From positions 32,001 to 96,000 of the forward strand of contig JAXDQS010000001.1 in NCBI GenBank assembly GCA_034667725.1: a DNA stretch of 64,000 bases, given 5' to 3'. Under the pieces are notes generated by a model, which was not told the origin of the DNA, did no database searches, and was given only the letters and a program-made list of their open reading frames with translations. Position 1 is the first letter of the stretch; each line of letters starts with the position of its first letter. The translations under genes were made by a program, and so were the position numbers. This DNA is from Thermoplasmata archaeon (GTDB lineage: Archaea > Thermoplasmatota > E2 > JACPAO01 > JAHFTW01). Shown in pieces: positions 154-24,568 of this stretch.

Positions 154-988
154 GCGCATCGTCGTCCTCGGCGCCACCGGCCAGCTCGGCACCGACGTCG
201 TCCAGGCCGCCCGCGGGCGCGGCCTGACGGTCGTTGGGCTCGCCACCGCGGGCGCCGACGTGACCCGGCCGGAGAGCCTCGCCGCGGCGTTCGCGGCGCA
301 CAAGCCGACCCTGGTCGTCAACTGCGCCGCGTTCCACCAGGTGGACAAGTGCGAGGACGACCCGGCGCAGGCGTTCGCGGTGAACGCCGTCGGCGCGCTC
401 CACGCCGCCCGCGCCGCCAAGGCGGCGGGCGCGCGGACGGTGTACGTCAGCACCGACTACGTGTTCGACGGCCGCAAGCCCGTGGGCAGCGCATACGCCC
501 CCGAGGACGCGCCCGGCCCGCTCAACGTCTACGGCGCCAGCAAGCTCGCCGGCGAGCAGCTGACCCGGCAAGCCGACCCGGCGGCCCTCGTGGTCCGGGT
601 CGCCAGCCTGTTCGGCAAGGCCGGCAGCCGCGGCAAGGGCGGCAACTTCGTCGAGAACATCTTGCGGAAAGCCAAGGCAGGCGAGCCCGTCAGCGTCGTG
701 GCCGACCAATGGATGAGCCCCACCTGGACCGTGGACGCCGCCGCCCAGATCCTGGACGCAGCGCTTGCCGGCAGGACGGGCACCATGCACGCCACCAGCG
801 GCGGCTCCTGCTCCTGGTGGGCCTTCGCCCAGGAAGCGGTTCGCGCCGCCGGCCTGGAGGTCGTCGTCAAGCAGGGCTCGGTCAAGGACTGGCCCAGCAA
901 GGCGCAACGGCCCGCGAACTCGGCGCTGGCCGGCGGGGACGACCAAGGCTGGGTCCGCGCGGTCAAGGCCTACGTGCGGTCCGGGTGA
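137..988 (+). CDS. rmlD: dTDP-4-dehydrorhamnose reductase
   Basis: GATGQLG Rossmann motif, VNCAA, STDYVFDG, PLNVYGASKLAGE (YxxxK), DQxxSPT. Confidence 0.9.
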   Translation: MAPSSERIVVLGATGQLGTDVVQAARGRGLTVVGLATAGADVTRPESLAAAFAAHKPTLVVNCAAFHQVDKCEDDPAQAFAVNAVGALHAARAAKAAGARTVYVSTDYVFDGRKPVGSAYAPEDAPGPLNVYGASKLAGEQLTRQADPAALVVRVASLFGKAGSRGKGGNFVENILRKAKAGEPVSVVADQWMSPTWTVDAAAQILDAALAGRTGTMHATSGGSCSWWAFAQEAVRAAGLEVVVKQGSVKDWPSKAQRPANSALAGGDDQGWVRAVKAYVRSG

Positions 989-1755
989 CCACCGTGCTTG
1001 GAATCCCGCGGCAGCTCCTGTGGAACCTCGTGCTGCGCGAGGTCCGCCTGAGCCACCGCCGGATGGGGCTCGGCATCCTCTGGACGTTCATCAATCCCCT
1101 CGCGCTCATCCTGATCTATTTCCTGGCGTTCCGCTATGTCCTCGGCGTCCAGCCGACCCCGGAGTACGGCCTGTTCCTGACCTTGGGCATCCTGCACTGG
1201 GACCTGTTCAACCGCATCGTCACGCGAGCGCCGGAGTCCATTGTCGCCAACGGGAGCCTCATCGACAAGGTGGCGTTCCCGCGCATCGTCCTGCCGGCTT
1301 CGGTGGCCGTCTCCGAGCTGGTCCAGCACGGGTTCGTGCTGGCCGCGTTCGTGTTTTTCTACTACCCCTTGGGAGGCAAGCTGTGGGCGGGGGTCGCGCT
1401 GTACCCCGTCATCCTGCTGCTCGGCTGGATGTTCTGCCTGGGCCTGGCGATGCTGCTGGCGGCCCTCACGGTGTTCGCCCGCGACCTCATCCATGTCGTG
1501 GCCATCATGATGCGGGTCGGCTTCTTCCTGACGCCGGTCATCTACGACTTCACCCGGGTCGCGGAGCCTTGGCAGACCATCCTGGCCCTCAACCCGTTCG
1601 CGGGCTATCTGGAGGGCATCCGCAGCGTCCTCTACCGCCAGTCCTACCCGAGCCTTGCCACATGGGCCCTCATGGTCTTTGCCGCGGCCGCCACCCTCGC
1701 GCTCGGCAAGTGGGTCTTCGAACGCACCCAGCGCCGCTTCACGGAGTTCCTGTGA
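985..1755 (+). CDS. wzm: ABC-2 polysaccharide export permease (Wzm/TagG-like)
   Basis: GTG start overlaps the rmlD stop. Motifs LGILWTFINPL, LIDKVAFPR, FFLTPVIY, LNP; multiple TM helices. Confidence 0.88.
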   Translation: MTTVLGIPRQLLWNLVLREVRLSHRRMGLGILWTFINPLALILIYFLAFRYVLGVQPTPEYGLFLTLGILHWDLFNRIVTRAPESIVANGSLIDKVAFPRIVLPASVAVSELVQHGFVLAAFVFFYYPLGGKLWAGVALYPVILLLGWMFCLGLAMLLAALTVFARDLIHVVAIMMRVGFFLTPVIYDFTRVAEPWQTILALNPFAGYLEGIRSVLYRQSYPSLATWALMVFAAAATLALGKWVFERTQRRFTEFL

Positions 1756-2465
1756 TGGAGCCGGTCATCGAGCTGGCGCACGTGAGCAAGCGCTTCGTCC
1801 GCCGCACCGAAGGCAGCCGGCCGTTCCGGGACTTGCTGCGACTGGGCCAGCCCGCCGAGGCCGACCGCTACCTCTGGGCCCTGCGGGACGTCAGCCTCCG
1901 CATCCACCAAGGCGAGGCCGTCGGCATCCTGGGCCGCAACGGCGCCGGCAAGAGCACCATGCTGAAGATCATCGCCGGCACCATGCAGCCGACCTCGGGC
2001 AAGGTCACGGTCCGTGGCACCATCGCGCCCCTCTTGCAGTTGGGCGCGGGCTTCACGCCGCAGCTTTCCGGCCGCGAGAACCTGTTCCTCAATGCCTCGT
2101 TCTACGGCCTGACCCGCCGCCAAGTGGTCGCGCTGTACGACGACATCGTGGAGTTCGCCGAGCTGCGCGACTTCATGGAGATGCCTCTGGGCCACTATTC
2201 AAGCGGGATGCAGATGCGCCTGGGCTTCGCCATCGCGATCCACCTCAAGGCCGACATTCTGCTGGTGGACGAGGCCTTGGCGGTCGGCGACCAGGCATTC
2301 CAGCGCAAATGCCTGGAGAAGGTGCGCGAGCGCCGGCAGGACGGCTGCACTTTGGTGCTGGTGTCCCATTCGCCCGAGACCATCGCGCAGTTCTGCGAGC
2401 GCAGCGTCGTCGTCGAGGGCGGCCTGGTCGTGCCGGGCAAGGCGGGCGGGCCCCTTGGCGACTGA
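1755..2465 (+). CDS. wzt: ABC polysaccharide export ATPase (Wzt/TagH-like, no C-terminal carbohydrate-binding domain)
   Basis: ALRDVSL, Walker A GRNGAGKST, YSSGMQMRLGF signature, LLVDEALAVGD. Confidence 0.9.
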   Translation: MEPVIELAHVSKRFVRRTEGSRPFRDLLRLGQPAEADRYLWALRDVSLRIHQGEAVGILGRNGAGKSTMLKIIAGTMQPTSGKVTVRGTIAPLLQLGAGFTPQLSGRENLFLNASFYGLTRRQVVALYDDIVEFAELRDFMEMPLGHYSSGMQMRLGFAIAIHLKADILLVDEALAVGDQAFQRKCLEKVRERRQDGCTLVLVSHSPETIAQFCERSVVVEGGLVVPGKAGGPLGD

Positions 2466-3549
2466 AGCCCGCGCCGAGCCCCGCAATTTTGGCTTGGACG
2501 TGCTGCGCTGCTTCGCGATCGGCGCAGTCCTCGTCTCTCACCTCGGCACCCACTTTTTTCAGCCCTTCCACCCCGGCTTGCATCCGTTTCTGGTCGGCGC
2601 CTCCGTCGTCGGGGTCGAGGCGTTCTTTGTCCTGAGCGGCTTCTTGATCGGCGGCATCCTGCTGCGGCAGTTCGCGCCCGGCCGCCCCGCGTCGTTGCCG
2701 CAGGCCCGCGACTTCTGGGTCCGACGCTGGTTCCGGACCCTGCCGAACTACTATCTGTTCGTCGCGGTCAACGCCATCGTCTTCTGGACGGGCCTGACCC
2801 CCTACCCCATGCGGCCAGAATATCTGCTGTTCCTGCAGAACCTTTGGACGTTCCCGCCGGGGCCGTTCGGCGAGTCCTGGTCCCTGTCCGTGGAGGAGTT
2901 CTTCTACCTCCTGTTGCCGCTGTTGATCCTGCTGGCCTGCTGGCTCGTGCGGGCCCGCCAGGCCGCGCTGCTCGCTGCCGCCTTCGCCCTCATGGCGGTC
3001 CCGACCGTCGCACGGCTTGCGCTTGCAGCGGCCGGGACGGAGCCGCAGCCTTGGAACGAGGGCACGCGCTCGGTCGTCCTGCTGCGCCTGGACGCCCTCG
3101 GCTACGGCGTGCTGGGCGCCATGGCCGCCGCCTGGCGGCCCGCCCTATGGAACGCCCACTGCGGTGCGAGAGCCGTCGTCGGCGTGGCGCTGGCGGCGGT
3201 CGGGGTCTGGCTCTGCGTGCGACTGTTCTTCGGCCTGGACGCCCCGCTTGCCTACCTCCTGAGCCTTCCGCTCGTCTCGGCCGGCATCCTGCTCACGCTT
3301 CCCTGGCTGGAGGCGATCCGCCCCTGGGGCCGGACGTCACGGGCGGCGGTGACGGCGACGAGCAAGTATGCCTACTCGCTGTATCTCTGCCATACGCCTC
3401 TGGCCTACTTGGTGCTGGCGACCATGGGCGCGGGTCCGCTGCAAAGCCTGGTCTGGTTGGGGGCCGCCTACGCGGTGGCCGCGCTGGTGTTCCACGGCTT
3501 CGAGCGACCGACGACGGCGCTGCGCGAGCGGTTTGCCAAGCGTGCCTAA
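2455..3549 (+). CDS. Acyltransferase-3 (OafA/YrhL-like) membrane O-acyltransferase
   Basis: GLDVLRCFAI..V..SH, GVEAFFVLSGFLI, RRWFRTLP, WSLSVEEFFY, YSLYLCH. Confidence 0.88.
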   Translation: MATEARAEPRNFGLDVLRCFAIGAVLVSHLGTHFFQPFHPGLHPFLVGASVVGVEAFFVLSGFLIGGILLRQFAPGRPASLPQARDFWVRRWFRTLPNYYLFVAVNAIVFWTGLTPYPMRPEYLLFLQNLWTFPPGPFGESWSLSVEEFFYLLLPLLILLACWLVRARQAALLAAAFALMAVPTVARLALAAAGTEPQPWNEGTRSVVLLRLDALGYGVLGAMAAAWRPALWNAHCGARAVVGVALAAVGVWLCVRLFFGLDAPLAYLLSLPLVSAGILLTLPWLEAIRPWGRTSRAAVTATSKYAYSLYLCHTPLAYLVLATMGAGPLQSLVWLGAAYAVAALVFHGFERPTTALRERFAKRA

Positions 3550-5126
3550 CGGCGCCACCGCGGCAACCGGAGCGCCGCCTCCAGGTCGCCGAGCAGGCTG
3601 CCGTCGCCATAGCCCGGCGACGACTGGGCGGCCCGCAGGTGGCGCAAGGCCTTGCGGCGCTTGCCGAGCGCCAGCCACGCCTGGCCGAGGGCGTGGTGGG
3701 TCCGCGCCAAGGTCACCGGCTCCACCGCCATCGCCTGCGGCGGCGCCAGCACTTGCTGGAGCGCCTGGATGGCCTGCTGGGGCCGGCCAAGCCGGAGGTC
3801 CAGCCAGCCGGCGTGGAACAGCGCCCAAGGGAGAAGCTGCTGGGCCTCCGCGGTGAAGAACACGTCGTGGCCCACAAGGGCAGACTGGACGGCGGCCGCG
3901 GCATGGAAGCCGCGGCAGGCGCGCTCTTGGTCGCCGTCGGCGTTCAGGGCCAGCATGGCGTCGTGGTACAGCAGGTTCCCGATGCAGTAAGGCAAGTGGC
4001 GCCCCCAATCGGAGAACGACGTGGCCAGGCGTGCCCGGCGTTGCGCCTCCGCCGGCTCGCAGGCGCCCGGCCCGTGGACCGCCTCTGCGGCGGCCTTGGC
4101 CTCGCGCAGGGCGGCGCGGGTGGCGTCGTGGCGGCCGGCGTGGCCGTGCTCGCCGGCCAGGCGGGTGGCGACGCCCAGGCGCAGGCGGTCAGGAGTCTTG
4201 TCCTCGGCCAGGAAGCGTTCCAGGTACGACAGGTATTCCGGCCCGTGCCCGCCGAGCCGGGGCGTCGCGAACGGCTTGCGGCTGGCGAACGCGATGAGAC
4301 GGTCGTTGCGAGGCAAGACCACGACGTGCGCGAAGCCGGCGCGCCGCAACAGGCCGGCGAGGCTGTCGGCCCCGAACAGCAGGACATGGTAACCGGGCGA
4401 GAGGTTCGGCACCAGGGTGGCCAGGTCCGAGCCAGAATCGGCCACTTGGGCGTTGGGCGTCGTGAGCACCAGCAGCCCGTCGGGCGCCAGGTAGTCTCCG
4501 AGCAGCCGGGCCAGGTCGACCGGGGTGGAAACGTGCTCGATGACCTCGGAGCAGAACACGAAGTCGAACGTGCGGCCATGGAGCGCGGGCACGTCCTGGA
4601 CGTAGGCGTGGTGGATGTCGAGCCCAAGCCGCGCACGCCCTTCGCGGCCGAAGTAGCCTGGCTCGCAGCCGACGACCGCCGTGCCCCAGAGCCGGCGGGC
4701 CGCGTCCAAGGCCAAGCCGTAGCCGCAACCGACCTCCAGCATGGAGCGGAACGGCCGGGCCGCACGGGCCGTGGCGACCAGGTCCACCATGAAGCTGATC
4801 CCGGCGCCCCATTCGACGTAATGCTGCAGGCCGCTCTCCTGCGCGAAGTAGTCCGAGGCCGCTTCGGCGCCTTGGTCGTAGGCGGGCAGCCGGAACGGAT
4901 GGAAGTAGACGCTGCCGCACGGGCAGGCGTAGAGGTCGAGGCGGCCTTGGTCGAGCACGGAGGCGACCGACAGGACCTGGGGCTTTGGCGTGGCGTCGCC
5001 GCACGCCGGGCAGCCTCCGGCAGGCTTCGGGGCCTTGCTTCGAGCCCAGCGCAGCCCGAGCGTCTCGGGCCGCATCCCCACGGAGGACTGCTCCGCCTGC
5101 ACGCCGTCCGGACCCCAGGCCAGCAT
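3546..5126 (-). CDS. Class I SAM-dependent methyltransferase with N-terminal Cys motifs and C-terminal TPR-like helices
   Basis: CPACG/CPCG, LEVGCGYG, FDFVFCSEVIEHV, LVLTTPN. Start uncertain (5126 or 5075). Confidence 0.75.
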   Translation of the reverse strand: MLAWGPDGVQAEQSSVGMRPETLGLRWARSKAPKPAGGCPACGDATPKPQVLSVASVLDQGRLDLYACPCGSVYFHPFRLPAYDQGAEAASDYFAQESGLQHYVEWGAGISFMVDLVATARAARPFRSMLEVGCGYGLALDAARRLWGTAVVGCEPGYFGREGRARLGLDIHHAYVQDVPALHGRTFDFVFCSEVIEHVSTPVDLARLLGDYLAPDGLLVLTTPNAQVADSGSDLATLVPNLSPGYHVLLFGADSLAGLLRRAGFAHVVVLPRNDRLIAFASRKPFATPRLGGHGPEYLSYLERFLAEDKTPDRLRLGVATRLAGEHGHAGRHDATRAALREAKAAAEAVHGPGACEPAEAQRRARLATSFSDWGRHLPYCIGNLLYHDAMLALNADGDQERACRGFHAAAAVQSALVGHDVFFTAEAQQLLPWALFHAGWLDLRLGRPQQAIQALQQVLAPPQAMAVEPVTLARTHHALGQAWLALGKRRKALRHLRAAQSSPGYGDGSLLGDLEAALRLPRWRR

Positions 5127-5134
5127 AAGGCTGC

Positions 5135-6886
5135 TCACTTCAGGCGGGGCAGCATCGGCTCCGACAGGAACCATGCGAGGGCGGGGTTCGCGTACGGGTC
5201 CGCCGCCGGCACCAACGAGCGGTCTGCGCGTGCAGCCTCGTGGAACAGGCCGCCATCGAAGGGGCGCGGCTGGCCCGGGCGGACCGCCTTTGCGCACGGC
5301 GTGAACATGGCGTGCTGGCCAGCTTGGCGGGCCCGCAGGCAGAAGACCGCAAGCATCTCGTCCAGGTCGGCGCTGGCAGGGGTGCCTTGCGCAGCCAGCG
5401 CCGTCGCGGGAATGGCCACAAGGTCGGGCGCGACCACGAGGTGGCGGCGATACCACGTCGTCGAGCCGAACAGGCTGAAGTGGTCCTGCATCCCCTCGAA
5501 CAGCGGCACCGCGGAGCCGGTCGGCCCGAGCACGCGGCCGGTCGCCACGATGTTGCCGTCCGGGTAGTGCACGGCGCCGGCCACGGCCGCGGCGCCTGGC
5601 CGGCGGGTCCAGCGCTCCAGCTCCTCCAGCCAGTCCGCATCCTGGACCAAGAGGTCGTCGGCAAGCAGGGCCACCATGCCGTCGGCCTGGGTGCGGGCTG
5701 CGTCCCACGGGACGGCCGAGGTCGGCTGGACGCGCGGGTCGCCCACGGCCAGCGCGGCCTGCCAGCGGGGGTCGCCGGGCGTGGCGGGGACCAACGCGCG
5801 CCACCGAGGGTGCCGGGTGGTCTTGCACAACGCACGCAGGCAGGCGGCCAGCCGGGCGGGCGGCGACGAACCCCAGACGACGACCAGGACGTTCGCGGGC
5901 GGAGTCGTCCAGGTGGAGCGGATGAGGCCGGGATGGTGGGCGTCCACCTTGGGCTCAGGAACCCCGAGGCGCTCCAAGTGGCGCCGGATGGCGGCCTCTT
6001 GGCTGAGGTAGACCTTTGGCTTGGCCGCGCCGGAGCTTGCCGTCGAGGCGGGCACCATGCGCCAATGGTACAGGACGCGGGGGACATGCGCGACCGCGTC
6101 GGTCCGCTCGGTGAGCCGGAACGCCAGGTCCCAGTCCTGCGACCCGTCGGTGGCGGGGTCGAAGCCGCCCAGGTCCCGCACCAGCCGCGCCCGGAAGACG
6201 GAGTGCATGAGATAGTTGGCGCACAGCAGCGTCTCGGGCGACCAGCCGGGCTTGAACCAGGGCTCCAGATGGCGGGTGCCGTCGGCAGAGACCTTGTCCT
6301 CGTCGACGTACACGATGTCCAGGCTGCGGTCCGCCACGATGCGTTCGGCGACCAGGAAAACGAAGTCGGGCGCGATGACGTCGTCGTGGTCGAGGATGGC
6401 CACGTAGTCGCCCGTCGCGAGGGCCAAGGCGGCGTTGGAGTTGCCCGAGATGCCGAGGTTCTCGGGCAGGAACACGGTCTTGATCCGCCGGTCTTCGGCG
6501 GCATGGCGGGCCATGATGTCGCGCAGGCGCTGGTCCTTGGAGCAGCCGTCGGCCAGGCAGAGTTCCCAATGCGGCGCGCTCTGGGCGCGGACGCTCTGGA
6601 TGGTCGCCTCGAGCACGCTCGGCGCGACGTTCCAGACTGGCGTGAGGAAGCTGATGCGGGGCGGGTCGTCCCAGGACGCGGCCACGCTGGCCTGACGGGC
6701 GAGCTCCGCGGCCGTGGGCTGCTTCTTGGCCAGCCACTCCTCGTAGCGGCGCCACGAAATCAAGAAACGGCGTTGGATCTCCAAGCCGATCCATCGTCTG
6801 GTCTTGCGCGCAAGAGGCCTCGGGCCCTCAGCGCGCAGGACACGCCAGGCTTGGCCTGCCAGGACGGGGAGGTCTCGGAGCCTCAA
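5135..6886 (-). CDS. GT2 glycosyltransferase, two-domain O-antigen-type
   Basis: ISFLTPVWN, WELCLADGCS, NLGISGNSN, ILDHDD, GSQDWDL, VLYHWR. TTG start overlaps the upstream stop. Confidence 0.85.
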   Translation of the reverse strand: MRLRDLPVLAGQAWRVLRAEGPRPLARKTRRWIGLEIQRRFLISWRRYEEWLAKKQPTAAELARQASVAASWDDPPRISFLTPVWNVAPSVLEATIQSVRAQSAPHWELCLADGCSKDQRLRDIMARHAAEDRRIKTVFLPENLGISGNSNAALALATGDYVAILDHDDVIAPDFVFLVAERIVADRSLDIVYVDEDKVSADGTRHLEPWFKPGWSPETLLCANYLMHSVFRARLVRDLGGFDPATDGSQDWDLAFRLTERTDAVAHVPRVLYHWRMVPASTASSGAAKPKVYLSQEAAIRRHLERLGVPEPKVDAHHPGLIRSTWTTPPANVLVVVWGSSPPARLAACLRALCKTTRHPRWRALVPATPGDPRWQAALAVGDPRVQPTSAVPWDAARTQADGMVALLADDLLVQDADWLEELERWTRRPGAAAVAGAVHYPDGNIVATGRVLGPTGSAVPLFEGMQDHFSLFGSTTWYRRHLVVAPDLVAIPATALAAQGTPASADLDEMLAVFCLRARQAGQHAMFTPCAKAVRPGQPRPFDGGLFHEAARADRSLVPAADPYANPALAWFLSEPMLPRLK

Positions 6887-7920
6887 ACGTCGCGGTCGAG
6901 CCGGCGCAAGGCCTTGGACGTTTGCCGCGCGGCCTGCAGGACGCCGCGGCCGGAGAGCAGCAGCCCGCGCCGCCGCAGCTCCTTGTCGGACACCGTTCGC
7001 CTTGCCTGGATCGCGGCCCGTTGCTGCAGCGCCGCCGGCATGGCCCCCAAGCCAGCCAGCGTGCCCCGCAGGCACGCAGCGGCGTGGCGGGGGCGGCCGC
7101 GCGCAAGCAGCGCGGCGGCCCGCGCGAGGTTGAGGCCAACCGACGCGGCCGCGGGCAGCACGGGGCGGGCGCGGTTCTTCAGCAAGGAGGCGAACCGGGT
7201 GCGGGTGCCCCAGTACAAGGTCGTCGCGGACTGCCTGCGGGTGGAGGCGCCGTAGCGGTGCCAGACGACGCTGCCAGGGGCGTGGAGGCAGCGGCCGCCT
7301 GCAAGCCAGACGCGGTGGCAGAAGTCGGCGTCCTCGGTGTAGAGGAAGAACGCAGGGTCGAAGCCGCCGTGGGCAAGGAAGGCGTCGCGCCGGAACAAGG
7401 CGGCCCCGCCGCAGACGGCGCCCGTCTCGCCCACGGATTCCCCTGCATGGGACGAGGCCGGCTCTCCAAGGCCGAGGTCGAGGCCGCCGCCCAAGGGCGA
7501 CAGGACGGCGCCGGCGTGGTGCAGCAACGGCATCGCAGCGGGCCGGTCACGCCACAGCAGGAGCCGAGAGCCCACGGCCGCCGCGTCGGGATGGAGGTCC
7601 GCCGCCTCCACCAACGTTCTCAGCCAGTCCCGCTCGGCCCGCGTGTCGTTGTTCAGCAGCACGACGCAAGGGGTCTGCACCATAGCGATGGCTTGGTTCA
7701 TCGCCTTGGCGAAGCCGAGGTTCTCGCCGCAGTCGTGCAGGCGGACCTTGGGGAACCGCGTGCGGACGAACGCCTGCGAGCCGTCGGTGGAGCCGTTGTC
7801 CCACACCAATACGTCGAACGGTTCGTGGATGTCCTGGGCAAGGACCGCGTCGAGGCACTCCTGCAGGTGGTGGCGGCCGTTCCAGTTCAGGACGATGACC
7901 GTGATGCGCGGCCCGGCCAT
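6883..7920 (-). CDS. GT2 glycosyltransferase (WbbL/rhamnosyltransferase-like)
   Basis: VIVLNWNG, DNGSTDGS, NLGFA, LLNND, FFLYTEDADFC. Confidence 0.85.
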   Translation of the reverse strand: MAGPRITVIVLNWNGRHHLQECLDAVLAQDIHEPFDVLVWDNGSTDGSQAFVRTRFPKVRLHDCGENLGFAKAMNQAIAMVQTPCVVLLNNDTRAERDWLRTLVEAADLHPDAAAVGSRLLLWRDRPAAMPLLHHAGAVLSPLGGGLDLGLGEPASSHAGESVGETGAVCGGAALFRRDAFLAHGGFDPAFFLYTEDADFCHRVWLAGGRCLHAPGSVVWHRYGASTRRQSATTLYWGTRTRFASLLKNRARPVLPAAASVGLNLARAAALLARGRPRHAAACLRGTLAGLGAMPAALQQRAAIQARRTVSDKELRRRGLLLSGRGVLQAARQTSKALRRLDRDV

Positions 7921-7948
7921 GTCGTCGCTTGGGGACGGATGGCGGGCA

Positions 7949-7954
7949 CTTAAG
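7949..7954. promoter_or_regulatory. Palindromic CTTAAG TATA-like box between divergent GT2 genes
   Basis: Main AT-rich core in the ~50-bp gap, ~22-34 nt from both starts. Confidence 0.5.
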
Positions 7955-7970
7955 AGTGGGATGGTTGGCC

Positions 7971-8996
7971 ATGCCCGTGGCAGGGCCCGCGCCGAAGGTC
8001 TCCATCCTCATCGCCACCTACGACGGCGCCCGCTTCATCCCCGACCTGGCCGCTTCGCTGGCGCGGCAGGAGGGTCCGGCGTTCGAGGTCGTCGTGGTGG
8101 ACAACGCCTCGCGCGACGGCACCGCCGACGAGGTCGCGCGCCTCATGCCGACGGCCCGCGTCATCCGGTCCGACCGCAACCTCGGCTTCTGCGGCGGCAA
8201 CAACCTCGCGGCCCGCAACGCGGCGGGCGAGCTCCTGGTGCTGCTGAACCAGGACACCGAGGTCCGGCCGGGGTGGCTTGCGCATCTGGTGGCGGCGGTC
8301 GAGGCCGACCTGACCGTCGGCGTGGCCCAGTCGAAGGTGCTGCTGCACCGCGACCCGACCATCCTCAACTCCGTCGGCTGCGGCTTCAACTACCTGTTCT
8401 TCGGCTGGGCCGACCGCAACGGCCAGAAGGACGACGTCGAGGGGCCGCCGTTCGAGGTGCCGTACTGCCAAGGCGCGTCGCTCATCATCCGGCGGGCGCT
8501 GTACGAGGAGCTGGGCGGCTTCGACGAGCCGTTCTTCATGTACCACGACGACCTTGAGCTGGGCCTGAAGGCGCGGCTGGCGGGGAAGCGCTGCGTCTGC
8601 GTGCCCGACTCCGTGGTGCTGCACAAATACAACGAGGCGTCGCCGCCCCAGAAGCTGTACCTGCTGGAGCGCAACCGGCACCTCATGATGTGGAAATACT
8701 ATGGTCGCTGGACCCGGTTCCTGCTGTGGCCGCTCAACGCCCTGATGGACGGCGGCATCTTCCTGCTTGCCATCCCGCAGCAGTGGTGGCGGGAGAAGCT
8801 GCGGGCCCACCGCGACGCCCGCCGGATGCTCAAGGCCGCCCGCGGCCCCAGCCCGCACCATCCCTACACCGACGCCCAGCTGGTGCGGCTCTTGGGCTGC
8901 CGGTTCGAGGCGGGCGCCGTGGCCCCAAGCTTCAACCAGAAGGTCGCGCGGTTCCTGATGCGGGCCTACTATCCCATCGTCAAAGCCCTCGCTTAA
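7971..8996 (+). CDS. GT2 glycosyltransferase
   Basis: VDNASRDGT, NLGFCGGNN, LLNQD, FFMYHDDLEL. Start at 7971 or GTG 7977. Confidence 0.85.
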   Translation: MPVAGPAPKVSILIATYDGARFIPDLAASLARQEGPAFEVVVVDNASRDGTADEVARLMPTARVIRSDRNLGFCGGNNLAARNAAGELLVLLNQDTEVRPGWLAHLVAAVEADLTVGVAQSKVLLHRDPTILNSVGCGFNYLFFGWADRNGQKDDVEGPPFEVPYCQGASLIIRRALYEELGGFDEPFFMYHDDLELGLKARLAGKRCVCVPDSVVLHKYNEASPPQKLYLLERNRHLMMWKYYGRWTRFLLWPLNALMDGGIFLLAIPQQWWREKLRAHRDARRMLKAARGPSPHHPYTDAQLVRLLGCRFEAGAVAPSFNQKVARFLMRAYYPIVKALA

Positions 8997-10744
8997 TCAG
9001 GCTGGACGGTGAAGCCGCCGAAGGTGAACAGCGCCTTCCACACCAAGCGATGCAGGGCTTCGAACGGCGCCGCGACGCCGGGCAACGTCACGACGGGCTC
9101 GTGGTAGCGCGCCGTGGTGAGCTGGAGGAGCAGTTGCAAGCCGAACGCCAGCGCGACGCCGGCCACCACCAAGTTCCGCGACCAGTCCCGCGCCCACGCC
9201 AGCGACGCCAGGATCGCCAACGCCACCGCCAGCCCGCCGTACCGGAACAGCACCACGTGCTCGCTGGCATGGTTGTAGTCCGACCAGTAGCCGAGCAGCG
9301 CCTGGTGCAGCGCCCAGGTCGGGACGATGGCCAAGGGCAGCAGCGCCGCCACGCCGCCGGCCACCGCCCGCGCCGCCGGCCGCAGCGGCACGCCGGCGAA
9401 CAGGGCTTGGGCGGCGGGCGCGGCCAGCAGCGTCAGCAGCGGCCACAGGGTCGAGGCGTAGCGGATGTCGTAGCCGCCGCCGGGCTCCAGCAGGAACCGT
9501 CCCATGAACAGCACGAGGACGGCGGCGTAGGCCGCCGCGAGCAGCCGCCAGTCGCTGGGCAGCACGCGCCGCCAGGGGCGGTGGGCAAGCGCCGCGAACG
9601 CCAGCACCACGAACGGCGCCACCGACAGGAACGAGAACGCCGGGTCCACGTCGGACAAGCGGGTCCACACCAGGCTCTGCGCGATGGCCGACAAGCCGCC
9701 GGCCGGATCCGCCACCAAGGAATGCGAGAAGTAGCCGCCCTCCTCCAACGCCGCGAGGGACTGGACCGCGTACGCGCCGGCAGGAGGCGCTGTCGCGAAC
9801 ACCGGGAACTGCGGGCCCACCCCTTCCGCCCGCAACAGGTGCTGCTGCGCGACGAACGCGAGGAACCCGAGGCCGAAGCCGGCGAGGGCGGCGGCAGCGC
9901 GCGGCATCCAATGGCGGGGGGCTTGGCGCAGGCCGCGCAGGCCGACGACGCCGAGGCCGAAGGCCAGGAACAGGCCGAGCACCAGCTCGTTCCAGCAGGC
10001 CAAGCCCGCCACCCCGAAGGCCGCGAAGGTGCGCGCGACCGGGGTGCGGTGGCCGTCGCGGTAGAGCCAGGCCGCAAGGGTCAGCAGGAAGGTGGCGAGG
10101 GCGTGGTACTTGGCCGACAGCGCCCAGAACGCCATCGGGGTCGCGAACGCGTACGCCAGGACGAGGCCGAGCCGGACGTTGGCGGACACCCGGCCTTCCA
10201 GGAGGCGCCACAGCAGGGCGGCCGTCGCGGCGTGCGCGGCCAGCGACACCAGCTGGAGGGCCGCGAACTCCAGGAACGGCGAGCCCGGTGCGGGCTGCGG
10301 CCAAAGCATGGGCGTGGCCACGAACAGCAGCGGCACCGCGGGCAGCAGCCGGCCGGCCCGGCCGAGCAGGGACTGCTTTCGCTCCCACGCGGCCGCCACC
10401 ACCCACGGCACGATGCAGGCGAGCGCGATGGCGCCCTGGGTCCCAAGGGCTGCCGCCGCCAGGCGCAGGAGCAGAAGGGCGGGCACGGCGGCCACGCTCA
10501 ACATCGTCGAGGCGATGGGCGCCGCCGGCGGGTCGCCGGGATGCGGCACGACCCATTGGCCCACCACGGGGTCCGCCAGCACAGGCCCGTAGCCGGCCGG
10601 CAGGTCGTCGCGCAGCGCCAAGTGCCCTTCCATGACGCTGGTCAGGCTGGCGGCCTGGACGACCTCGTCGTCCATGAGGATGCCCGGCCGCCACAGCAGC
10701 AGCAGGGCGCACAGGACCAGGAGCCCGAGCCGGCGCGCCTGCAC
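8993..10744 (-). CDS. Polytopic membrane protein, probable GT-C-fold glycosyltransferase
   Basis: More than 10 hydrophobic segments; acidic DDE motif in the loop after TM1; adjacent to the GT cluster. Confidence 0.5.
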   Translation of the reverse strand: MQARRLGLLVLCALLLLWRPGILMDDEVVQAASLTSVMEGHLALRDDLPAGYGPVLADPVVGQWVVPHPGDPPAAPIASTMLSVAAVPALLLLRLAAAALGTQGAIALACIVPWVVAAAWERKQSLLGRAGRLLPAVPLLFVATPMLWPQPAPGSPFLEFAALQLVSLAAHAATAALLWRLLEGRVSANVRLGLVLAYAFATPMAFWALSAKYHALATFLLTLAAWLYRDGHRTPVARTFAAFGVAGLACWNELVLGLFLAFGLGVVGLRGLRQAPRHWMPRAAAALAGFGLGFLAFVAQQHLLRAEGVGPQFPVFATAPPAGAYAVQSLAALEEGGYFSHSLVADPAGGLSAIAQSLVWTRLSDVDPAFSFLSVAPFVVLAFAALAHRPWRRVLPSDWRLLAAAYAAVLVLFMGRFLLEPGGGYDIRYASTLWPLLTLLAAPAAQALFAGVPLRPAARAVAGGVAALLPLAIVPTWALHQALLGYWSDYNHASEHVVLFRYGGLAVALAILASLAWARDWSRNLVVAGVALAFGLQLLLQLTTARYHEPVVTLPGVAAPFEALHRLVWKALFTFGGFTVQPD

Positions 10745-10778: not shown

Positions 10779-11162
10779 TCAGCGGAACTCGCCGAAGTAG
10801 AGCACCGACTCGTCGGGGTCGTGCACCAAGGTCACGGTGCCCGGGCTGCTGCACACCACTTCGTCGCCGGCCTCGATCGGGCCAGCCGGGAGCACGCACG
10901 CCGCCGAGCCGCCCAGCCGGACCTCGGACCAGTCGAGCGGCCCGCCGGGGACCGAGACCACCTGGAGCCGGCCGCCGGGACCGTCCGGGTCCGGGAACGC
11001 CTGGAAGGTCGCCTTCTGCTCGGGGGCGTCCTGCTGGTCAGTGAACTCGTTGGTGAAGAACACCACGGCCACGCCGACGACGACCACGATGCCCACCATG
11101 AGGACGACGGCCACGTTGGCCGAGACCGCCTCCTGGTCGCCGCGGAACCGAGGGGACGCCAC
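10779..11162 (-). CDS. Archaeal type IV pilin (minor/paralogous)
   Basis: Class III signal-like DQEA|VSANVAVVLMVGIVVVV; C-terminal C..P.G...AGD...C shared with the neighbouring pilin. Confidence 0.75.
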   Translation of the reverse strand: MASPRFRGDQEAVSANVAVVLMVGIVVVVGVAVVFFTNEFTDQQDAPEQKATFQAFPDPDGPGGRLQVVSVPGGPLDWSEVRLGGSAACVLPAGPIEAGDEVVCSSPGTVTLVHDPDESVLYFGEFR

Positions 11163-11222
11163 GGCCCGCCGAGGCTGGCGGCTCGTGATAGGCGTTGCTG
11201 GAGGGTTCCGCGTTGCCGCGAC

Positions 11223-11270
11223 ACAAAACAGGGTTGGGAAAGGGAAGAGGGAGGGGGAGAAGGAAACCTT
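11223..11270 (-). terminator. Pyrimidine-rich terminator-like tract after the major pilin
   Basis: Minus strand reads aaggtttccttctccccctccctcttccctttcccaaccctgttttgt directly after the stop. Confidence 0.55.
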
Positions 11271-11282
11271 CACGCCGCGCGC

Positions 11283-11693
11283 TTAGAACTGCGCGGTGTA
11301 GATGAGGGTGTTCGTCGGGATGTAGCGGACGTAGAACGGGCCGTCGCCATCGGTGGCGCTGCAGACGATGACGTCGCCGGCATCCAGGGCGCCGGTCGGC
11401 TTGGTGCAGGCCGCGGTGCCGGAGGTGTTCTTGATCTCGACGTCGCCCCAGACGAGGCCGTTGTCAGGGGCGCCCTGGACGGCGATGACCGTCAAGGTGC
11501 CGCCAGCCAGGCTGGAGTCCGACTGCTTGTTGAACGTGATCGAGGGGCTCTGGTCCTCCTGGTTGCCCGCGAGGCGGGTGACGAGGACGAAGACGACCGC
11601 CGCGAGGACGACCGTGATGGCGACCATCAGGATGACGCCGATGACGGGCGACACGGCCTCGTCGTTGTTGCTGAACGCTTGGTTTGCCTTCAT
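11283..11693 (-). CDS. Archaeal type IV pilin (major; Pilin_N/DUF1628-type)
   Basis: DEA|VSPVIGVILMVAITVVLAAVV canonical archaeal pilin H-domain; GGAGG SD upstream; N-T-S sequon. Confidence 0.92.
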   Translation of the reverse strand: MKANQAFSNNDEAVSPVIGVILMVAITVVLAAVVFVLVTRLAGNQEDQSPSITFNKQSDSSLAGGTLTVIAVQGAPDNGLVWGDVEIKNTSGTAACTKPTGALDAGDVIVCSATDGDGPFYVRYIPTNTLIYTAQF

Positions 11694-11740
11694 TGTGATT
11701 CCTCCCTGGCTTACAGGGCATTCGCGCTGAGTTTCACCCG

Positions 11741-11748
11741 CTATATAG
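11741..11748. promoter_or_regulatory. TATA box (CTATATAG, palindromic) upstream of the major pilin
   Basis: Canonical TATA ~50 nt upstream of the pilin ATG, in the divergent intergenic region. Confidence 0.6.
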
Positions 11749-11894
11749 CGCTTGCTGGATGATTTCGCGTGGAACTCTAGTTCTTCCAGAGGAATCCTCG
11801 GCTTTCGCTTCTCCAGGCGGCGTGCCCTCCTGTTACCCTCTTGCCGAAGCGCCGATGGAAAGCCTTCAAGCCCTGGCACGGAGGAGGGGGGCCT

Positions 11895-12689
11895 GTGACC
11901 AGCGCCGGCGAGGTGGAGCAGTTCGCCTACTGCGCCCACAACTGGCTCCTGGCCCGGCACGGCGTCGAGGGGAACCTGCCCGGCACCCAGCGCGGCATCG
12001 AGGAGCACCGGGCCGCCGGCGCCGCGTTGGCCTCCTCCCAGCGCGAGGAGCGCGACTTCCGCGCCGGCCTTGCCTGGTCGCTGCGCATCAGCCTGGTCGG
12101 CTTGTCCATCCTGCTGGTGGTCCTCGCCGTCGCCCTGTTGGAGAACTCCCTGGTGAGCCTTCTGGCCTTGGCGGTCGCCCTGCTGGTGCTGCTGGCCTCC
12201 AGCGCCTTGCTGACGGTCGCCCTTGCCAGCCAGGTCCGGGCCCGCCGCATCCAGCGCGCCGCCCACCTCGTGCCCGGCCAAGTGCTCCAGGACGACCTCG
12301 GCGCCCAAGCCCCCCTGCTCGAAGACCCGACGTGGGGCATCTCCGGCCGCCCCGACTACCTGCTGCAGACCCGCAGCGGCACCGTGCCCGTCGAGGTCAA
12401 GACCGGCCGCACGCCGGACGCGCCCTACCGCAGCCACGCCCTGCAGCTCGCCTGCTACCTCCGCCTGGTGGAGGCCACCTCCGGCCGCGCGCCGGAGTAC
12501 GGGTTCCTGAGCTACCCGGGCGGGACGTTCCGGGTCGAATGGGACGACGCCTTGCGCGAGGACCTGCGCCAGACGGTCGAGCGGCTCGCCGTCGCCCGCG
12601 CCAGCGGGGTCGCCGACCGCGACCACGACCAGCCCGGCCGGTGCCGCGGCTGCGCGCGCCGGGCCGCCTGCGACCAGCGGCTGGCTTGA
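11895..12689 (+). CDS. Solo Cas4-like PD-(D/E)xK Fe-S nuclease with an inserted two-helix transmembrane hairpin
   Basis: SAGEVEQFAYC (Cys1), ISGRPDY, PVEVKTG, QLACY, C-terminal CRGCARRAAC; two hydrophobic stretches between Cys1 and the nuclease core. Confidence 0.85.
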   Translation: MTSAGEVEQFAYCAHNWLLARHGVEGNLPGTQRGIEEHRAAGAALASSQREERDFRAGLAWSLRISLVGLSILLVVLAVALLENSLVSLLALAVALLVLLASSALLTVALASQVRARRIQRAAHLVPGQVLQDDLGAQAPLLEDPTWGISGRPDYLLQTRSGTVPVEVKTGRTPDAPYRSHALQLACYLRLVEATSGRAPEYGFLSYPGGTFRVEWDDALREDLRQTVERLAVARASGVADRDHDQPGRCRGCARRAACDQRLA

Positions 12690-12771
12690 AGCCCGGCGGA
12701 CGCGCCAACGCCTGCCCGACTTCGCGCCGCCCTGCCGCAGGACCATGCCGGACCCACGGCTGCCTGGGCCC

Positions 12772-13173
12772 ATGCGGTTCCTCACTGTCCAGGAAGTCTT
12801 GTGGATGCACGCGTTCCTGCTGCACCGGGACGGCGGCGAGCCTGGGATGCTCAACCTGGGCCTTCTGGACGCCGCCCTCGACCGCTGCCGGTTCGGCCCG
12901 TTCGCGCAGCCGCCCGACCTGGCCGCCCGCGCCGCCTTCCTGATGCGCGGCATCTGCCAGGACCACCCGTTCGTGGACGGCAACAAGCGCACCTCGGTGG
13001 AAGCCCTGGACACGTTCCTGCGCGAGAACGGGATGCCGCTGGTTTGGTCGCGCCCCGAGGCGGTCGCGTTCGCGCTCTCCGTCGCGTTGGGCATGGACAT
13101 CGACGGCACCACCGCCTGGATTCGCCGCCGGATACCAAACCTCCAAACGGTCGAACGAGGTGATGCCCCATGA
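12772..13173 (+). CDS. doc: Doc-family (Fic fold) toxin
   Basis: HPFVDGNKRT motif; N-terminus FLTVQEVLWMH...GG..G...LGLLDAAL. Confidence 0.88.
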   Translation: MRFLTVQEVLWMHAFLLHRDGGEPGMLNLGLLDAALDRCRFGPFAQPPDLAARAAFLMRGICQDHPFVDGNKRTSVEALDTFLRENGMPLVWSRPEAVAFALSVALGMDIDGTTAWIRRRIPNLQTVERGDAP

Positions 13174-13304
13174 TGACGGGCGCGTTCCAATGCTCTCCCC
13201 AGGAGGAGGCCATCCTGGCCGGGATGGACCCCATCACCCGCCGGCACTTCCTCGAGTCCTACGAGCAGAACAAGGACGCGCTGCGCGACCTGGCGCGCCT
13301 CTGA
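13170..13304 (+). CDS. 44-aa putative antitoxin (not in ORF track)
   Basis: ATGA overlap with the doc stop; GAGGTGA SD; MMTGAFQCSPQEEAILAGMDPITRRHFLESYEQNKDALRDLARL*. Confidence 0.65.
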   Translation: MMTGAFQCSPQEEAILAGMDPITRRHFLESYEQNKDALRDLARL

Positions 13305-13380: not shown

Positions 13381-14409
13381 ATGCCCGCGGACTACCGCAA
13401 CGACGCCGTGCACCCCATGCTGTCGCGGGCCCGGCCGCTGTCCCAGACCACGCTCGGCAGCGACGGGCCCGGCAGGTCCTCCTACGGCGACTGCGCCATC
13501 CAGGAGTCCACCGGCGCGGGCGGCCTCACCGACTTCACCTTCGGGGGCAGCCAGGCCGGGGTCGCCTGGTCGGTCAACCCCTACGCCGGCTGCCTGCACG
13601 CCTGCAGCTACTGCTACGTGCCCGACACGCTCCATGCCGAGCGCCGCAACTGGGGCACCCGCGTCATCGTCAAGCGCGACCTTCCGACCCGCCTCGCGTT
13701 GGCGGTCGCGCGCAGCGCCAAGCTCACCTGCTACTTCTCCACCGCCACCGACCCGTACCAGAGCGTCGAGGCGGAGCACCAGATCACCCGCCGCTGCCTG
13801 GAGGTCCTCGTCCGCAAGGACTGGCCGGTCGAAATCCTGACCCGCAGCCCATTGGTGCTCCGGGACCTCGACCTCCTCCAGCAGTTGAGCATGGTGCGGG
13901 TCGGGTTCAGCATCCCCACGATGGACGACGGCCTGCGCCGCGTCCTGGAGCCCGCCGCCCCCGCCATCCCGGCCCGGCTGCGCGCGCTGCGGAAGCTGTC
14001 GGACCAAGGCATCCCGACGTTCGCCAACTACACGCCGGCCTGCCCGCCGACGACCCATGACGCGCCCGCGGTCGCCCGGACGTTCCTGGACGCCGGCGCC
14101 CAATGGGTCAACTCGACGCGCTGGAAGCGGCGCGCCACCACCATCGGCCCGCTGTGGGAGCGGCTGCGCGGCACGGAATGGGAGCACCTGCCCGCGTTCT
14201 TCGCCAGCAAGCCCCGCCAGAACGCCTGGCACGACGAGCTGGGCAAGGCGTTCCGCAAGCTCGGCCTGCCGCTCGGCACCTCGTTCTACAACCCGCCGTT
14301 CGAGTTCCTGCAAGCCCAGGACGTCGGCCCAAAGCAGGCGACCCTCCAGGAAATCCGCGTCCCGGTCCACGCCCACCCCCAGCCCCGCCGCCCGCGGCAG
14401 GCGGCCTGA
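13381..14409 (+). CDS. Radical SAM protein, SPL/Rv2578c-like putative DNA repair family
   Basis: NPYAGCLHACSYCY, STATDPYQ, ILTRSPLVLRDLDLL, LEP.AP....RL. Confidence 0.85.
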   Translation: MPADYRNDAVHPMLSRARPLSQTTLGSDGPGRSSYGDCAIQESTGAGGLTDFTFGGSQAGVAWSVNPYAGCLHACSYCYVPDTLHAERRNWGTRVIVKRDLPTRLALAVARSAKLTCYFSTATDPYQSVEAEHQITRRCLEVLVRKDWPVEILTRSPLVLRDLDLLQQLSMVRVGFSIPTMDDGLRRVLEPAAPAIPARLRALRKLSDQGIPTFANYTPACPPTTHDAPAVARTFLDAGAQWVNSTRWKRRATTIGPLWERLRGTEWEHLPAFFASKPRQNAWHDELGKAFRKLGLPLGTSFYNPPFEFLQAQDVGPKQATLQEIRVPVHAHPQPRRPRQAA

Positions 14410-15386: not shown

Positions 15387-17285
15387 GTGCCTGAGACCCT
15401 CGTGCCCGACACCTCCGTCCTCGTGGACGGCCGCATCACGGAGCTGGTGCTGTCGGGGGAGTTCCCGCGCGCGGACATCCGCGTGCCGCGCGCCGCGCTG
15501 GCGGAGCTGGAGGCGCAGGCCAACCGCGGCCTGGAGTCCGGGGTCGCCGGCCTCGACGAGCTGGCCGCCCTCCAGGAGATGGCCAAGGCCGGCCAATGCA
15601 CCATCGAGTTCGCGGGCGACCGCCCCCACGTCCGGGAGGTGATGGAGGCCCGCTCGGGCGCCATCGACGCCCGCATCCGCGAGCTGGCCGTCGAGGTGGA
15701 CGCCATCTTCGTCACCTCCGACCGCATCCAGGCGCACGCCGCCGCCGCGCAGGGCCTCCGCCACCACTACCTGCGGCCCCGCCACCGCCAGACCGACCTC
15801 ACCACGCTCAAGCTCTGGGAGTTCTTCGACCCGGAGACCATGAGCGTCCACCTCAAGTCGGAGTGCGTCCCGATGGTCAAGCGGGGCCAGCCGGGCGCCG
15901 TCCGCTACGAGCCGCACCGCCGCGGCGCCACCGCGATGCCGCACAAGGACCTGCGCGCCATCCAGAAGGAGTGCCTCGAGTTCGCGCGCCGCGACGACGA
16001 CTCGTTCATCGAGATGGAGAAGCACGGCTGCACCGTCATCCAGCTCGGCCCGATGCGCATCACCATGGCCCAGCCGCCGTTCGCCGACGGCCTGGAGCTC
16101 ACCGCCGTCCGCCCCATCACCAAGAAGTCGATCGAGCACTACAAGCTCGACCGCGAGCTGTTCGAGCGCATCGAAGGCCACAGCCGCGGCGTGTTCATCG
16201 CCGGCCCGCCCGGCTCCGGCAAGTCGACCTTCGCCGCCGCCGTCGCCGAGCACCTGCACGGCCTCGCCCGCGTCGTCAAGACCATGGAGCAGCCCCGCGA
16301 CCTGCAAGTGCCGCGCGAGGTCACCCAGTACGGCGCCTTGGACCGCGACATGAAGTGGACCGGCGACGTCATCCTCCTGGTCCGCCCCGACCACGTCCTC
16401 TACGACGAGGTGCGCACCACCGAGGACTTCCGCGTCTTTGCCGACATGCGCCTTGCCGGCGTCGGCCTCATCGGCGTCACCCACGCCAACCGCGCCATCG
16501 ACGCCGTGCAGCGCCTCATCGGCCGCGTCGAGCTTGGCATGATCCCCCAGATCGTGGACACCGTGCTGTTCGTCGAGGCCGGCAAGATCGCGCAGGTGCT
16601 GGAGCTGACCTTCACCGTCAAGGTGCCGTCCGGCATGACCGACGCCGACCTCGCCCGCCCCGTCGTCCTCGTCACCGACGTCCGCACCGCCCGCCCCGTG
16701 TTCGAGCTGTACACCTACGGCGAGCAGGTCGTCGTCATGCCGCTGGACCAGGAGATGCGCAAGGACCCGGCCAGCCAGCTCGCCGAACGGCAACTCAGCA
16801 CCATGCTCCGCAAGTACGTCCAAGGCCGCATGGAGGTCCAGGTGCGCGGCAACCGCGCCACCGTCATGGTGCCCGAGTCCGAGGTGCCCGGCCTCATCGG
16901 CAAGGGCGGCCGCAACGTCCAGATGCTGGAGAACAAGCTCGGCATCGGCCTCCAGATCCAGGCGCTGCCCGACCGCCCCACCGGACGCTGGGAGCGCAAG
17001 GACGCCAAGGACGACTACCAAGAGGAGATGGAGGCCGCCCGCGCGGCCGCCAAGGAGGACGACCAGCGGGGCGGCGTGCGCATCAAGCGCACCGGCACCA
17101 ATGTGTTCGTCCTCGTGGGCACGCCCGGCCTGTGGCGCATCGAGGTCGAGGGCGCCGTCGTCGGCGAGGGCATCGCCTCGAAGGACGGCAAGGTCCGCTT
17201 CAAGGCCAAGTCCGCCGAGGGCGAGGCCCTGGTCGAGGCCACCAAGCGCGGCTTCATCGTGTCGGCCGAGCGTCTGGAAGACTAG
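15387..17285 (+). CDS. PINA-type ATPase (PIN + P-loop ATPase + KH), archaeal Holliday-junction/fork-processing family
   Basis: VPDTSVLVDG PIN start, GPPGSGKSTFA, DEVR, DMRLAGVGLIGVTHA, KH motif LIGKGG. Confidence 0.88.
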   Translation: MPETLVPDTSVLVDGRITELVLSGEFPRADIRVPRAALAELEAQANRGLESGVAGLDELAALQEMAKAGQCTIEFAGDRPHVREVMEARSGAIDARIRELAVEVDAIFVTSDRIQAHAAAAQGLRHHYLRPRHRQTDLTTLKLWEFFDPETMSVHLKSECVPMVKRGQPGAVRYEPHRRGATAMPHKDLRAIQKECLEFARRDDDSFIEMEKHGCTVIQLGPMRITMAQPPFADGLELTAVRPITKKSIEHYKLDRELFERIEGHSRGVFIAGPPGSGKSTFAAAVAEHLHGLARVVKTMEQPRDLQVPREVTQYGALDRDMKWTGDVILLVRPDHVLYDEVRTTEDFRVFADMRLAGVGLIGVTHANRAIDAVQRLIGRVELGMIPQIVDTVLFVEAGKIAQVLELTFTVKVPSGMTDADLARPVVLVTDVRTARPVFELYTYGEQVVVMPLDQEMRKDPASQLAERQLSTMLRKYVQGRMEVQVRGNRATVMVPESEVPGLIGKGGRNVQMLENKLGIGLQIQALPDRPTGRWERKDAKDDYQEEMEAARAAAKEDDQRGGVRIKRTGTNVFVLVGTPGLWRIEVEGAVVGEGIASKDGKVRFKAKSAEGEALVEATKRGFIVSAERLED

Positions 17286-24562: not shown

Positions 24563-24568
24563 GGTCCC

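Follow-up and report, generated by a model that had tools for sequence, protein, structure and literature searches.

Solo-Cas4 nucleases, which are encoded away from the CRISPR loci of their hosts, have been reported in ∼90% of archaeal genomes (PMC5704561, PMC12501428). In M. mazei, stationary phase induces the solo-Cas4 whereas virus does not (PMC12501428), and CRISPR-associated cas4 has been reported to move horizontally together with the adaptation module (PMC5704561). In E. coli, the membrane-bound GIY-YIG nuclease SNIPE cleaves the DNA of phages as it is injected and is toxic when untethered; its anchor is N-terminal, and the tether has been proposed to spare host DNA and to position the enzyme at sites of DNA entry (Saxton et al. 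2026, PMC13190303). Here we describe a solo Cas4-family nuclease gene that lies divergent from a type IV pilin gene in a 64,000-nucleotide stretch of DNA from a Thermoplasmata archaeon (contig JAXDQS010000001.1, positions 32,001 to 96,000), which is the whole stretch analyzed and is called the window below (G+C content ∼71%). The nuclease is predicted to carry a two-helix membrane hairpin inside its catalytic domain, and relatives with such an insertion occur in most genera of the phylum. The gene and the parts of its product on which the argument rests are given below.

11895..12689, plus strand: solo Cas4-family nuclease gene, predicted to be membrane-anchored; 264 amino acids, GTG start (Pfam, PADLOC and PDB profile matches, AlphaFold2 (AF2) model, Foldseek).
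11931..11933, plus strand: Cys13, putative first iron-sulfur (Fe-S) ligand, in the motif SAGEVEQFAYC; invariant in two family alignments.
12069..12140, plus strand: predicted transmembrane helix 1, residues 59–82 (hydropathy, family conservation, AF2 helix 29–82).
12150..12230, plus strand: predicted transmembrane helix 2, residues 86–112, after a three-residue external loop, ENS (hydropathy, AF2, positive-inside pattern).
12345..12458, plus strand: RecB-type catalytic motifs GRPDY (151–155), EVK (167–169) and QLACY (184–188), with invariant residues; aligned to the motifs of Pcal_0546 and SSO0001.
12642..12671, plus strand: C-terminal Cys triad CxxCxxxxxC (C250, C253, C259), putative Fe-S cluster; invariant in two family alignments.

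The open reading frame (ORF) runs on the plus strand from a TTG codon at 11841 to a stop codon ending at 12689, and an earlier note, written from the letters of the window alone, had started the nuclease at that TTG. We replaced this start and took the gene as 11895–12689 because GTG 11895 has GGAGGAGGGGGG 5′ of it, because the N-terminus read from it, MTSAGEVEQFAYC, agrees with those of >100 homologs, and because the protein on record is 264 amino acids long. GTG 11895 is thus the likely start, and TTG 11841 is an improbable alternative.

Several lines of evidence identify the product as a Cas4. The C-terminal 140 residues match the Pfam families PDDEXK_1 (3e-9) and Cas_Cas4 (1.9e-7), both over their gathering cut-offs (PF01930, 31.7 bits compared with a cut-off of 22.7), and PADLOC Cas4 models match the protein at up to 6e-15. 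The score against TIGR00372 is 49.8 bits, under the 65-bit cut-off; a relative with four inserted helices reaches 81.7 bits. Further, a profile built from 84 members of the protein family matches Pcal_0546 (4r5q, 2e-5) and SSO0001 (4ic1, 4e-4), and in the 84-sequence alignment Y12, C13, D154, E167, K169, Q184, Y188, C250, C253, and C259 are invariant and H38 is nearly so. The AF2 model, which was run with an alignment, has a mean predicted local distance difference test score (pLDDT) of 93.7 and a predicted template modeling score (pTM) of 0.87. Its best Foldseek matches are 8d3q, 8d3l, 7mi4, and 4ic1 (probability 1.0 and E 4e-5 for type I-C Cas4/Cas4-Cas1), and its structural neighbors comprise type I-C Cas4, Cas4-Cas1, SSO0001, Dna2, ACE1, AdnAB, MGME1, and Exo5. 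Overall, profiles, motifs, and the predicted fold confirm the gene as that of a Cas4-family PD-(D/E)XK protein, a predicted [Fe-S] DNA nuclease, with its motifs intact, in agreement with the intact RecB-type nuclease and four Fe-S cysteines that had been read from the sequence at the outset.

Between Cys13 and the nuclease core lies a hydrophobic hairpin (residues 59–112) that is conserved across the protein family. On the 282-residue form read from the TTG codon, Kyte-Doolittle analysis marks hydrophobic segments at ∼77–101 and 103–131, with 19-residue means of up to 2.6, and the AF2 model renders the region as a single long helical hairpin (helices 29–82 and 86–122) that juts from the α/β core. 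Averaged over the family, lysine and arginine (K/R) residues number 3.7 and 3.6 in the two 15-residue flanks, compared with 0.7 in the five-residue loop. Because the flanks are rich and the loop is poor in K/R, both halves of the protein are predicted to be cytoplasmic, and the nuclease would therefore sit in the cytoplasm and not at the outer surface beside the pilus fiber. By sequence and model, the protein family thus shows an even number of hydrophobic helices of at least ∼20 residues between K/R-rich flanks, as befits an integral membrane protein. Consistent with this, the proposal of the earlier note that a transmembrane hairpin is inserted between the first Cys and the core and keeps both halves on the same side of the membrane is borne out by hydropathy, by the charge of the flanks, and by the modeled hairpin.

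To define the spread of the family, we collected homologs at E ≤ 1e-10 from 401 genomes sampled from the window's phylum. A homolog was present in 278 of these genomes and in 120 of 162 genera, almost always as one match per genome; the named relatives belong to the Thermoplasmatota (entries named Thermoplasmatota, Thermoplasmata, and Methanomassiliicoccales metagenome-assembled genomes). All 60 loci that were fetched with 6-kb flanks retain both the Cys module at the N-terminus and the nuclease core. In the 61 loci examined (nine of the window's family and 52 of 22 other families), the insertion contains two helices (∼264 amino acids in total), four (∼325–380 amino acids), or ∼6–8 (550–730 amino acids), and the number of matches to the profile's hairpin section (one, two, or three to four) tracks the size of the insertion, which is made of repeated hairpin units. 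The AF2 model of a four-helix member from a closed genome shows two hairpins on the same core (pLDDT 90.3). The same length classes emerged from an exhaustive profile search of 1.84 billion cluster representatives, with 256 proteins reaching E ≤ 1e-30 and 1125 reaching E ≤ 1e-10.

We also built a quick tree from nuclease-core sequences, disregarding a clade of eight bacterial rows (small N-terminal ORFs on a false long branch). It resolved most taxonomic families with several members as monophyletic (Shimodaira-Hasegawa-like approximate likelihood ratio test (SH-aLRT) values of 99, 99, 96, 99, and 99 for families f1, f27, f14, f33, and f38, respectively); f43, f12, and f39 were not resolved as single clades. 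The phylum-wide pattern is consistent with vertical descent, and the monophyly of families fits an earlier report that solo-Cas4 as a whole is inherited mostly vertically (Hudaiberdiev et al. 2017, PMC5704561). No gene cluster besides the nuclease itself is common to more than 9 of the 61 loci. The identified neighbors outside the window's family are housekeeping genes, and include those for deoxyhypusine synthase, an NTPase, Trm1, ribosomal proteins S2 and L15e, a TPD protein, and GlmS.

Our preferred reading, to which we assign a probability of roughly 0.55, is that the gene encodes the solo Cas4 that the phylum has inherited vertically, with a tether that would let it meet only DNA near the membrane. 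A single catalytic domain would be split by the two-helix hairpin between the Cys1 helix and the core, such that the N-terminal module (Cys13, His38) and the C-terminal core (D154, E167, K169, and the Cys triad) would fold together at the membrane's inner face. The tether would keep a potentially genotoxic nuclease off the nucleoid, and the enzyme would then act only on DNA ends arising at the membrane. Its most likely substrate would be incoming linear DNA of viral, plasmid, or transferred origin, which the enzyme would trim or destroy from the ends in the manner of soluble Cas4 enzymes in vitro. In the window's order, the gene has come to adjoin the gene for the major pilin and the operon for pilus assembly. 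We infer this role of the tether from what is observed, namely the fold, the motifs, the hairpin and its even-numbered variants, the pattern of inheritance, and the absence of a CRISPR link. Four points weigh against it. A dedicated defense gene would not typically be inherited vertically by most of a phylum; nuclease activity, Fe-S binding, and topology in all family members are predicted properties; the pilin adjacency seen in 16 of 16 genomes of the window's order could mean that a pilus partnership counts for more than this reading allows; and the gene order of bacterial relatives, which places them in a run with ssb and recN, points towards repair or recombination and not towards surveillance of entering DNA.

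The bacterial relatives bear on the main rival, which we regard as possible but would not expect to hold: that the protein is a membrane-tethered housekeeping nuclease for repair or recombination, which trims chromosomal ends, for example at membrane-attached sites of replication or segregation, and has no role with foreign DNA. Profile relatives were found in the Anaerolineales and Chloroflexia (Chloroflexota). Of 30 Chloroflexota loci, 28 have a conserved small ORF immediately upstream of an ORF of ∼170 amino acids that contains helix 2, the core, and the Cys triad, and in the eight loci resolved by profile, the small ORF (∼80 amino acids in most) corresponds to the Cys1 module and helix 1. 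The split falls at the turn of the hairpin, and in some loci the two ORFs share a frame and are separated by a single stop codon. The common run of genes, found in 12–18 of 30 loci, is ssb, DUF3467, an unknown gene of 214 amino acids, Cas4N, Cas4C, NAD kinase, a B-box protein, and recN. The Chloroflexota loci are numbered L132–L180 in our set, with L159:2953–3750 and L133:1437–6721 as examples. In the quick tree the bacterial cores group with the window's family (SH-aLRT 95), which hints at transfer between the domains, although only weakly because the bacterial set was chosen by its similarity to the window's family.

A role in repair would suit this position between ssb and recN, and it would equally suit the phylum-wide pattern consistent with vertical descent, the housekeeping neighbors, the Cas4 fold common to AddB, AdnAB, Dna2, MGME1, and Exo5, and the stationary-phase, virus-independent induction of the M. 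mazei enzyme (PMC12501428). However, it offers no clear reason for a membrane anchor, end resection is already provided for in the window by HerA and an Mre11-like gene, and the ssb/recN synteny is confined to one bacterial phylum, where it may reflect descent.

A second rival concerns the pilus. The features around the nuclease that bear on it, and those that flank them, are as follows.

8993..10744, minus strand: polytopic membrane protein of 583 amino acids with no Pfam or NCBIfam family, 35 nucleotides after pilin 2 and on the same strand.
10779..11162, minus strand: second, divergent pilin-like gene (pilin 2), ∼127 amino acids, with a probable GTG start; Pilin_N 6e-4, under the cut-off, and 2.8e-17 with the pilin profile built here.
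11283..11693, minus strand: major archaeal type IV pilin (pilin 1), 136 amino acids, MKANQAF..DEAVSPVIGVILMVAITVVLAAVVFVLV; Pilin_N 9e-16, arch_flag_Nterm 2e-12.
11694..11894, no strand: divergent intergenic region between the nuclease and pilin 1, 201 bp; alignment of seven orthologous gaps.
12745..13173, plus strand: Doc/Fic toxin gene immediately 3′ of the Cas4 gene; Fic 5e-11, TIGR01550 DOC_P1 8e-14, over its cut-off.

Searching with a hidden Markov model (HMM) built from the window pilins, we found an orthologous major pilin upstream of the nuclease and divergent from it, 133–3025 bp off, in 9 of 9 loci of the window's family, where it is the most persistent neighbor (any other gene is kept in at most 5 of 9). 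Six further genomes of the family have the same divergent arrangement, which brings the genomes with a pilin within 3 kb to 15 of 15 informative ones; in the sister family (1 of 1 genome), the pilin is directly downstream of the nuclease on the same strand. In six genomes of the window's family, orthologous genes for a PilB3-type ATPase and a T2SSF platform protein lie on the other side of the nuclease, which places it inside a pilus locus. In the window's own genome, which has just six Pilin_N matches in 2.3 Mb, the PilB3-type ATPase is ∼26 kb away on the pilin side, past a glycan gene cluster.

Outside these two families the picture differs. With the same HMM, no pilin was found within 6 kb of the nuclease in the 52 loci of 22 other families. 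Because so narrow a model could miss distant pilins, the search was repeated across whole genomes with Pfam Pilin_N on 30 genomes of other families, and none had a match within 10 kb of the nuclease, the closest being 13 kb away; 28 of these genomes have pilins, and two keep the nuclease without a detectable Pilin_N. Similarly, the 52 loci lack a T2SSE ATPase within 6 kb of the nuclease, and ComEC, DprA, and ComEA-like proteins were absent from the Pfam matches of the neighboring genes examined, although no search was aimed at them. The pilin linkage is thus real and persistent in one order, but the two genes are not co-transcribed, and the linkage does not characterize the protein family as a whole because it is missing from 52 of 52 loci and 30 of 30 genomes beyond the window's family and its sister. 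The expectation that neighborhoods would be conserved with pilus or DNA-uptake genes consequently held for pilins in 16 of 16 genomes of these two families and failed elsewhere.

The earlier note had described a divergent promoter region of ∼200 bp shared with two pilins; the divergent gap of 201 bp and the pilins are there, but the shared promoter is not supported. In the seven aligned gaps, only the ∼60 bp proximal to the pilin are conserved (a Shine-Dalgarno sequence GGGAGGA, a CCCTG..CAGGG stem, and a TATA box), and the Cas4 side is not. The pilin TATA box of the window lies at 11742–11747, ∼50 nucleotides before the ATG, and the palindromic GCGCTATATAGCGC, which was considered as a bidirectional promoter, proved to be this TATA box. 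The conserved leader suggests a structured 5′ untranslated region on the major pilin mRNA. Its elements are found in 11694–11760 of the window and in the gaps of L042, L047, L048, and L186–L188. Gaps of >300 bp between pilin and nuclease often hold toxin-antitoxin-like genes; in L043 and L046, VapBC-like and PIN/HxlR genes are inserted between the two. Overall, the nuclease-pilin junction collects toxin-antitoxin genes.

These results allow the second rival to be weighed. It holds that the tethered nuclease, in the window's order alone, acts together with the type IV pilus and processes or destroys DNA brought in at the pilus anchor by uptake or by pilus-binding viruses. A broader version would make the whole membrane-embedded family a constitutive “entry-point” nuclease, cutting DNA during its passage through the membrane either as an archaeal counterpart of SNIPE-type immunity or as the missing processing nuclease of archaeal DNA uptake; in the window's order it would be physically coupled to the base of the PilB3-type pilus, where pilus-binding viruses or transforming DNA enter. 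We consider both versions rather unlikely. Coupling to the pilus would account for the major pilin being the most persistent neighbor in all 15 informative genomes of the family, for the sister family having changed the arrangement yet kept the adjacency, and for the position of the nuclease inside the pilus locus in six genomes, and the scarcity of Pilin_N matches in the window's genome makes the adjacency there more telling. However, the link is lacking in the 52 loci and 30 genomes of other families, two of which retain the nuclease without a detectable Pilin_N; the genes are divergent or separated by toxin-antitoxin inserts; all conserved elements of the gap are on the pilin side; and the catalytic domain is predicted to face the cytoplasm, beside pilus genes of the PilB3 adhesion-pilus type. 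Further, with ∼40 family-level lineages and a chance of ∼1.6% in each, we estimate that one chance adjacency somewhere in the phylum is not unlikely. The pilus adjacency reads as a lineage-specific linkage, possibly functional there, and not as the defining partnership of the family. Of the original picture of a membrane nuclease acting on incoming DNA at the pilus, the tethered nuclease and the adjacent pilins remain, whereas the link to the pilus is restricted to one lineage and the nuclease is predicted to lie in the cytoplasm.

The remaining rivals fare far worse. The source genome is 2.32 Mb long and 90% complete, and it has one copy of the nuclease. It contains no Cas1 and no regularly spaced repeat array, and no CRISPR array is present in the window, which upholds the solo status first proposed. 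A six-frame scan of this genome with PF01930 gave no candidate and missed even the gene under study (31.7 bits by hmmscan), and it is uninformative on paralogs. It is very improbable that this Cas4 contributes in trans to CRISPR adaptation and that the bin simply lacks cas1, cas2, and the arrays. Such loss is conceivable in a genome that is just 90% complete, as arrays often fail to assemble, and TIGR00372 matches the protein family, with the four-helix relative over its cut-off; but no Cas1 was found in the genome, the family tracks taxonomy over 120 genera, unlike the horizontally moving CRISPR-associated cas4 (PMC5704561), and a membrane tether is ill-suited to a Cas1-Cas2 complex working at the chromosome. 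Just as improbable is that the hairpin is a buried or oligomerizing helical arm of a soluble enzyme, for although transmembrane helix 1 averages about one K/R and about one aspartate or glutamate residue, the 19-residue hydropathy means of the hairpin reach 2.6, the flanks are rich in K/R, the insertion grows to four and ∼6–8 hydrophobic helices, and the split genes keep one helix each.

The rest of the locus is less informative. In locus L001, a Fic gene and a 44-residue ORF likewise lie downstream of the nuclease, and the counterpart region in the window is 12745–13304. The 583-residue protein encoded at 8993–10744 may be a pilin-modifying glycosyltransferase, and it adjoins a glycan cluster with GT2 and RmlD genes at 137–8996. 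Proteins of ∼590–640 amino acids without a family match come after the pilin in several relatives (587, 590, and 640 amino acids), and the 587-residue protein of L047 has an N-terminus like that of the window's protein. The radical SAM gene at 13381–14409 (plus strand) is PA0069/Rv2578c-like (1e-42, yet below the cut-off); an AapX-type link through it was considered and rejected, as the gene is not kept beside the nuclease in relatives. A candidate pilus ATPase at 16149–16601 was likewise dismissed, its weak T2SSE match belonging to a PIN-ATPase-KH protein (15387–17285, plus strand). This gene and the HerA (DUF87) and Mre11-like phosphoesterase pair (22994–25690, plus strand), 3–11 kb downstream, are ordinary archaeal housekeeping and repair genes.

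How, then, does the locus compare with what has been described? Van Wolferen et al. are said to have reported in 2015 that DNA-repair genes lie beside the ups pilus operon of the Sulfolobales, so that one archaeal order reportedly keeps nuclease and helicase genes beside a type IV pilus locus. The nucleases there are said to be of other kinds (ParB-like and Endo III) and soluble, and the pilus reportedly is UV-inducible and serves DNA exchange. We found no publication on a membrane-hairpin Cas4 design conserved across a phylum. The word “transmembrane” does not occur with Cas4 in PMC5704561 or PMC12501428, and the single “membrane” in PMC5704561 concerns another enzyme; a full-text literature search combining solo-Cas4 with “transmembrane” returned an unrelated paper only, and Cas4 and nucleases go unmentioned in a recent survey of archaeal type IV filament systems. 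That a form built into the membrane is shared by most genera of a major phylum of archaea, with a split version in the Chloroflexota, is a clue that the substrate must come to the membrane. If the role is one of repair, it would mean that DNA-end processing is organized at the membrane, and the order-specific placement in a type IV pilus locus provides a natural test case for the connection between pili and DNA entry in archaea.

Archaeal solo-Cas4 (COG1468/PF01930; PMC5704561, PMC12501428; 4R5Q, 4IC1) has the same fold, the same RecB motifs, and the same Fe-S “staple” of one plus three Cys as the window protein, and it is likewise encoded away from CRISPR and mostly vertically inherited. The characterized members, however, are soluble proteins of ∼200 amino acids, whereas the window protein has a conserved two-helix hairpin (four or ∼6–8 helices in relatives) inside the catalytic domain. 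CRISPR-associated Cas4 (8D3Q/8D3L; Cas4-Cas1, 7MI4) provides the closest structural matches, but the window's genome lacks Cas1 and an array, the protein is predicted to be membrane-anchored, and its TIGR00372 score is below the cut-off. Although SNIPE resembles the window protein in concept, in that a membrane anchor is combined with a cytoplasmic DNA nuclease, the two are unrelated: SNIPE has GIY-YIG and DUF4041 domains and one transmembrane helix, the window protein shows PD-(D/E)XK and Cas4 domains only and is not a member of that family, and SNIPE has ∼500 homologues across many bacterial phyla, compared with a family found in most genera of one phylum. By analogy, SNIPE is nevertheless the closest working analogue of a tethered Cas4, and if the tether does restrict the nuclease to incoming DNA, the window's gene would represent an archaeal, chromosomally fixed analogue of the SNIPE principle.

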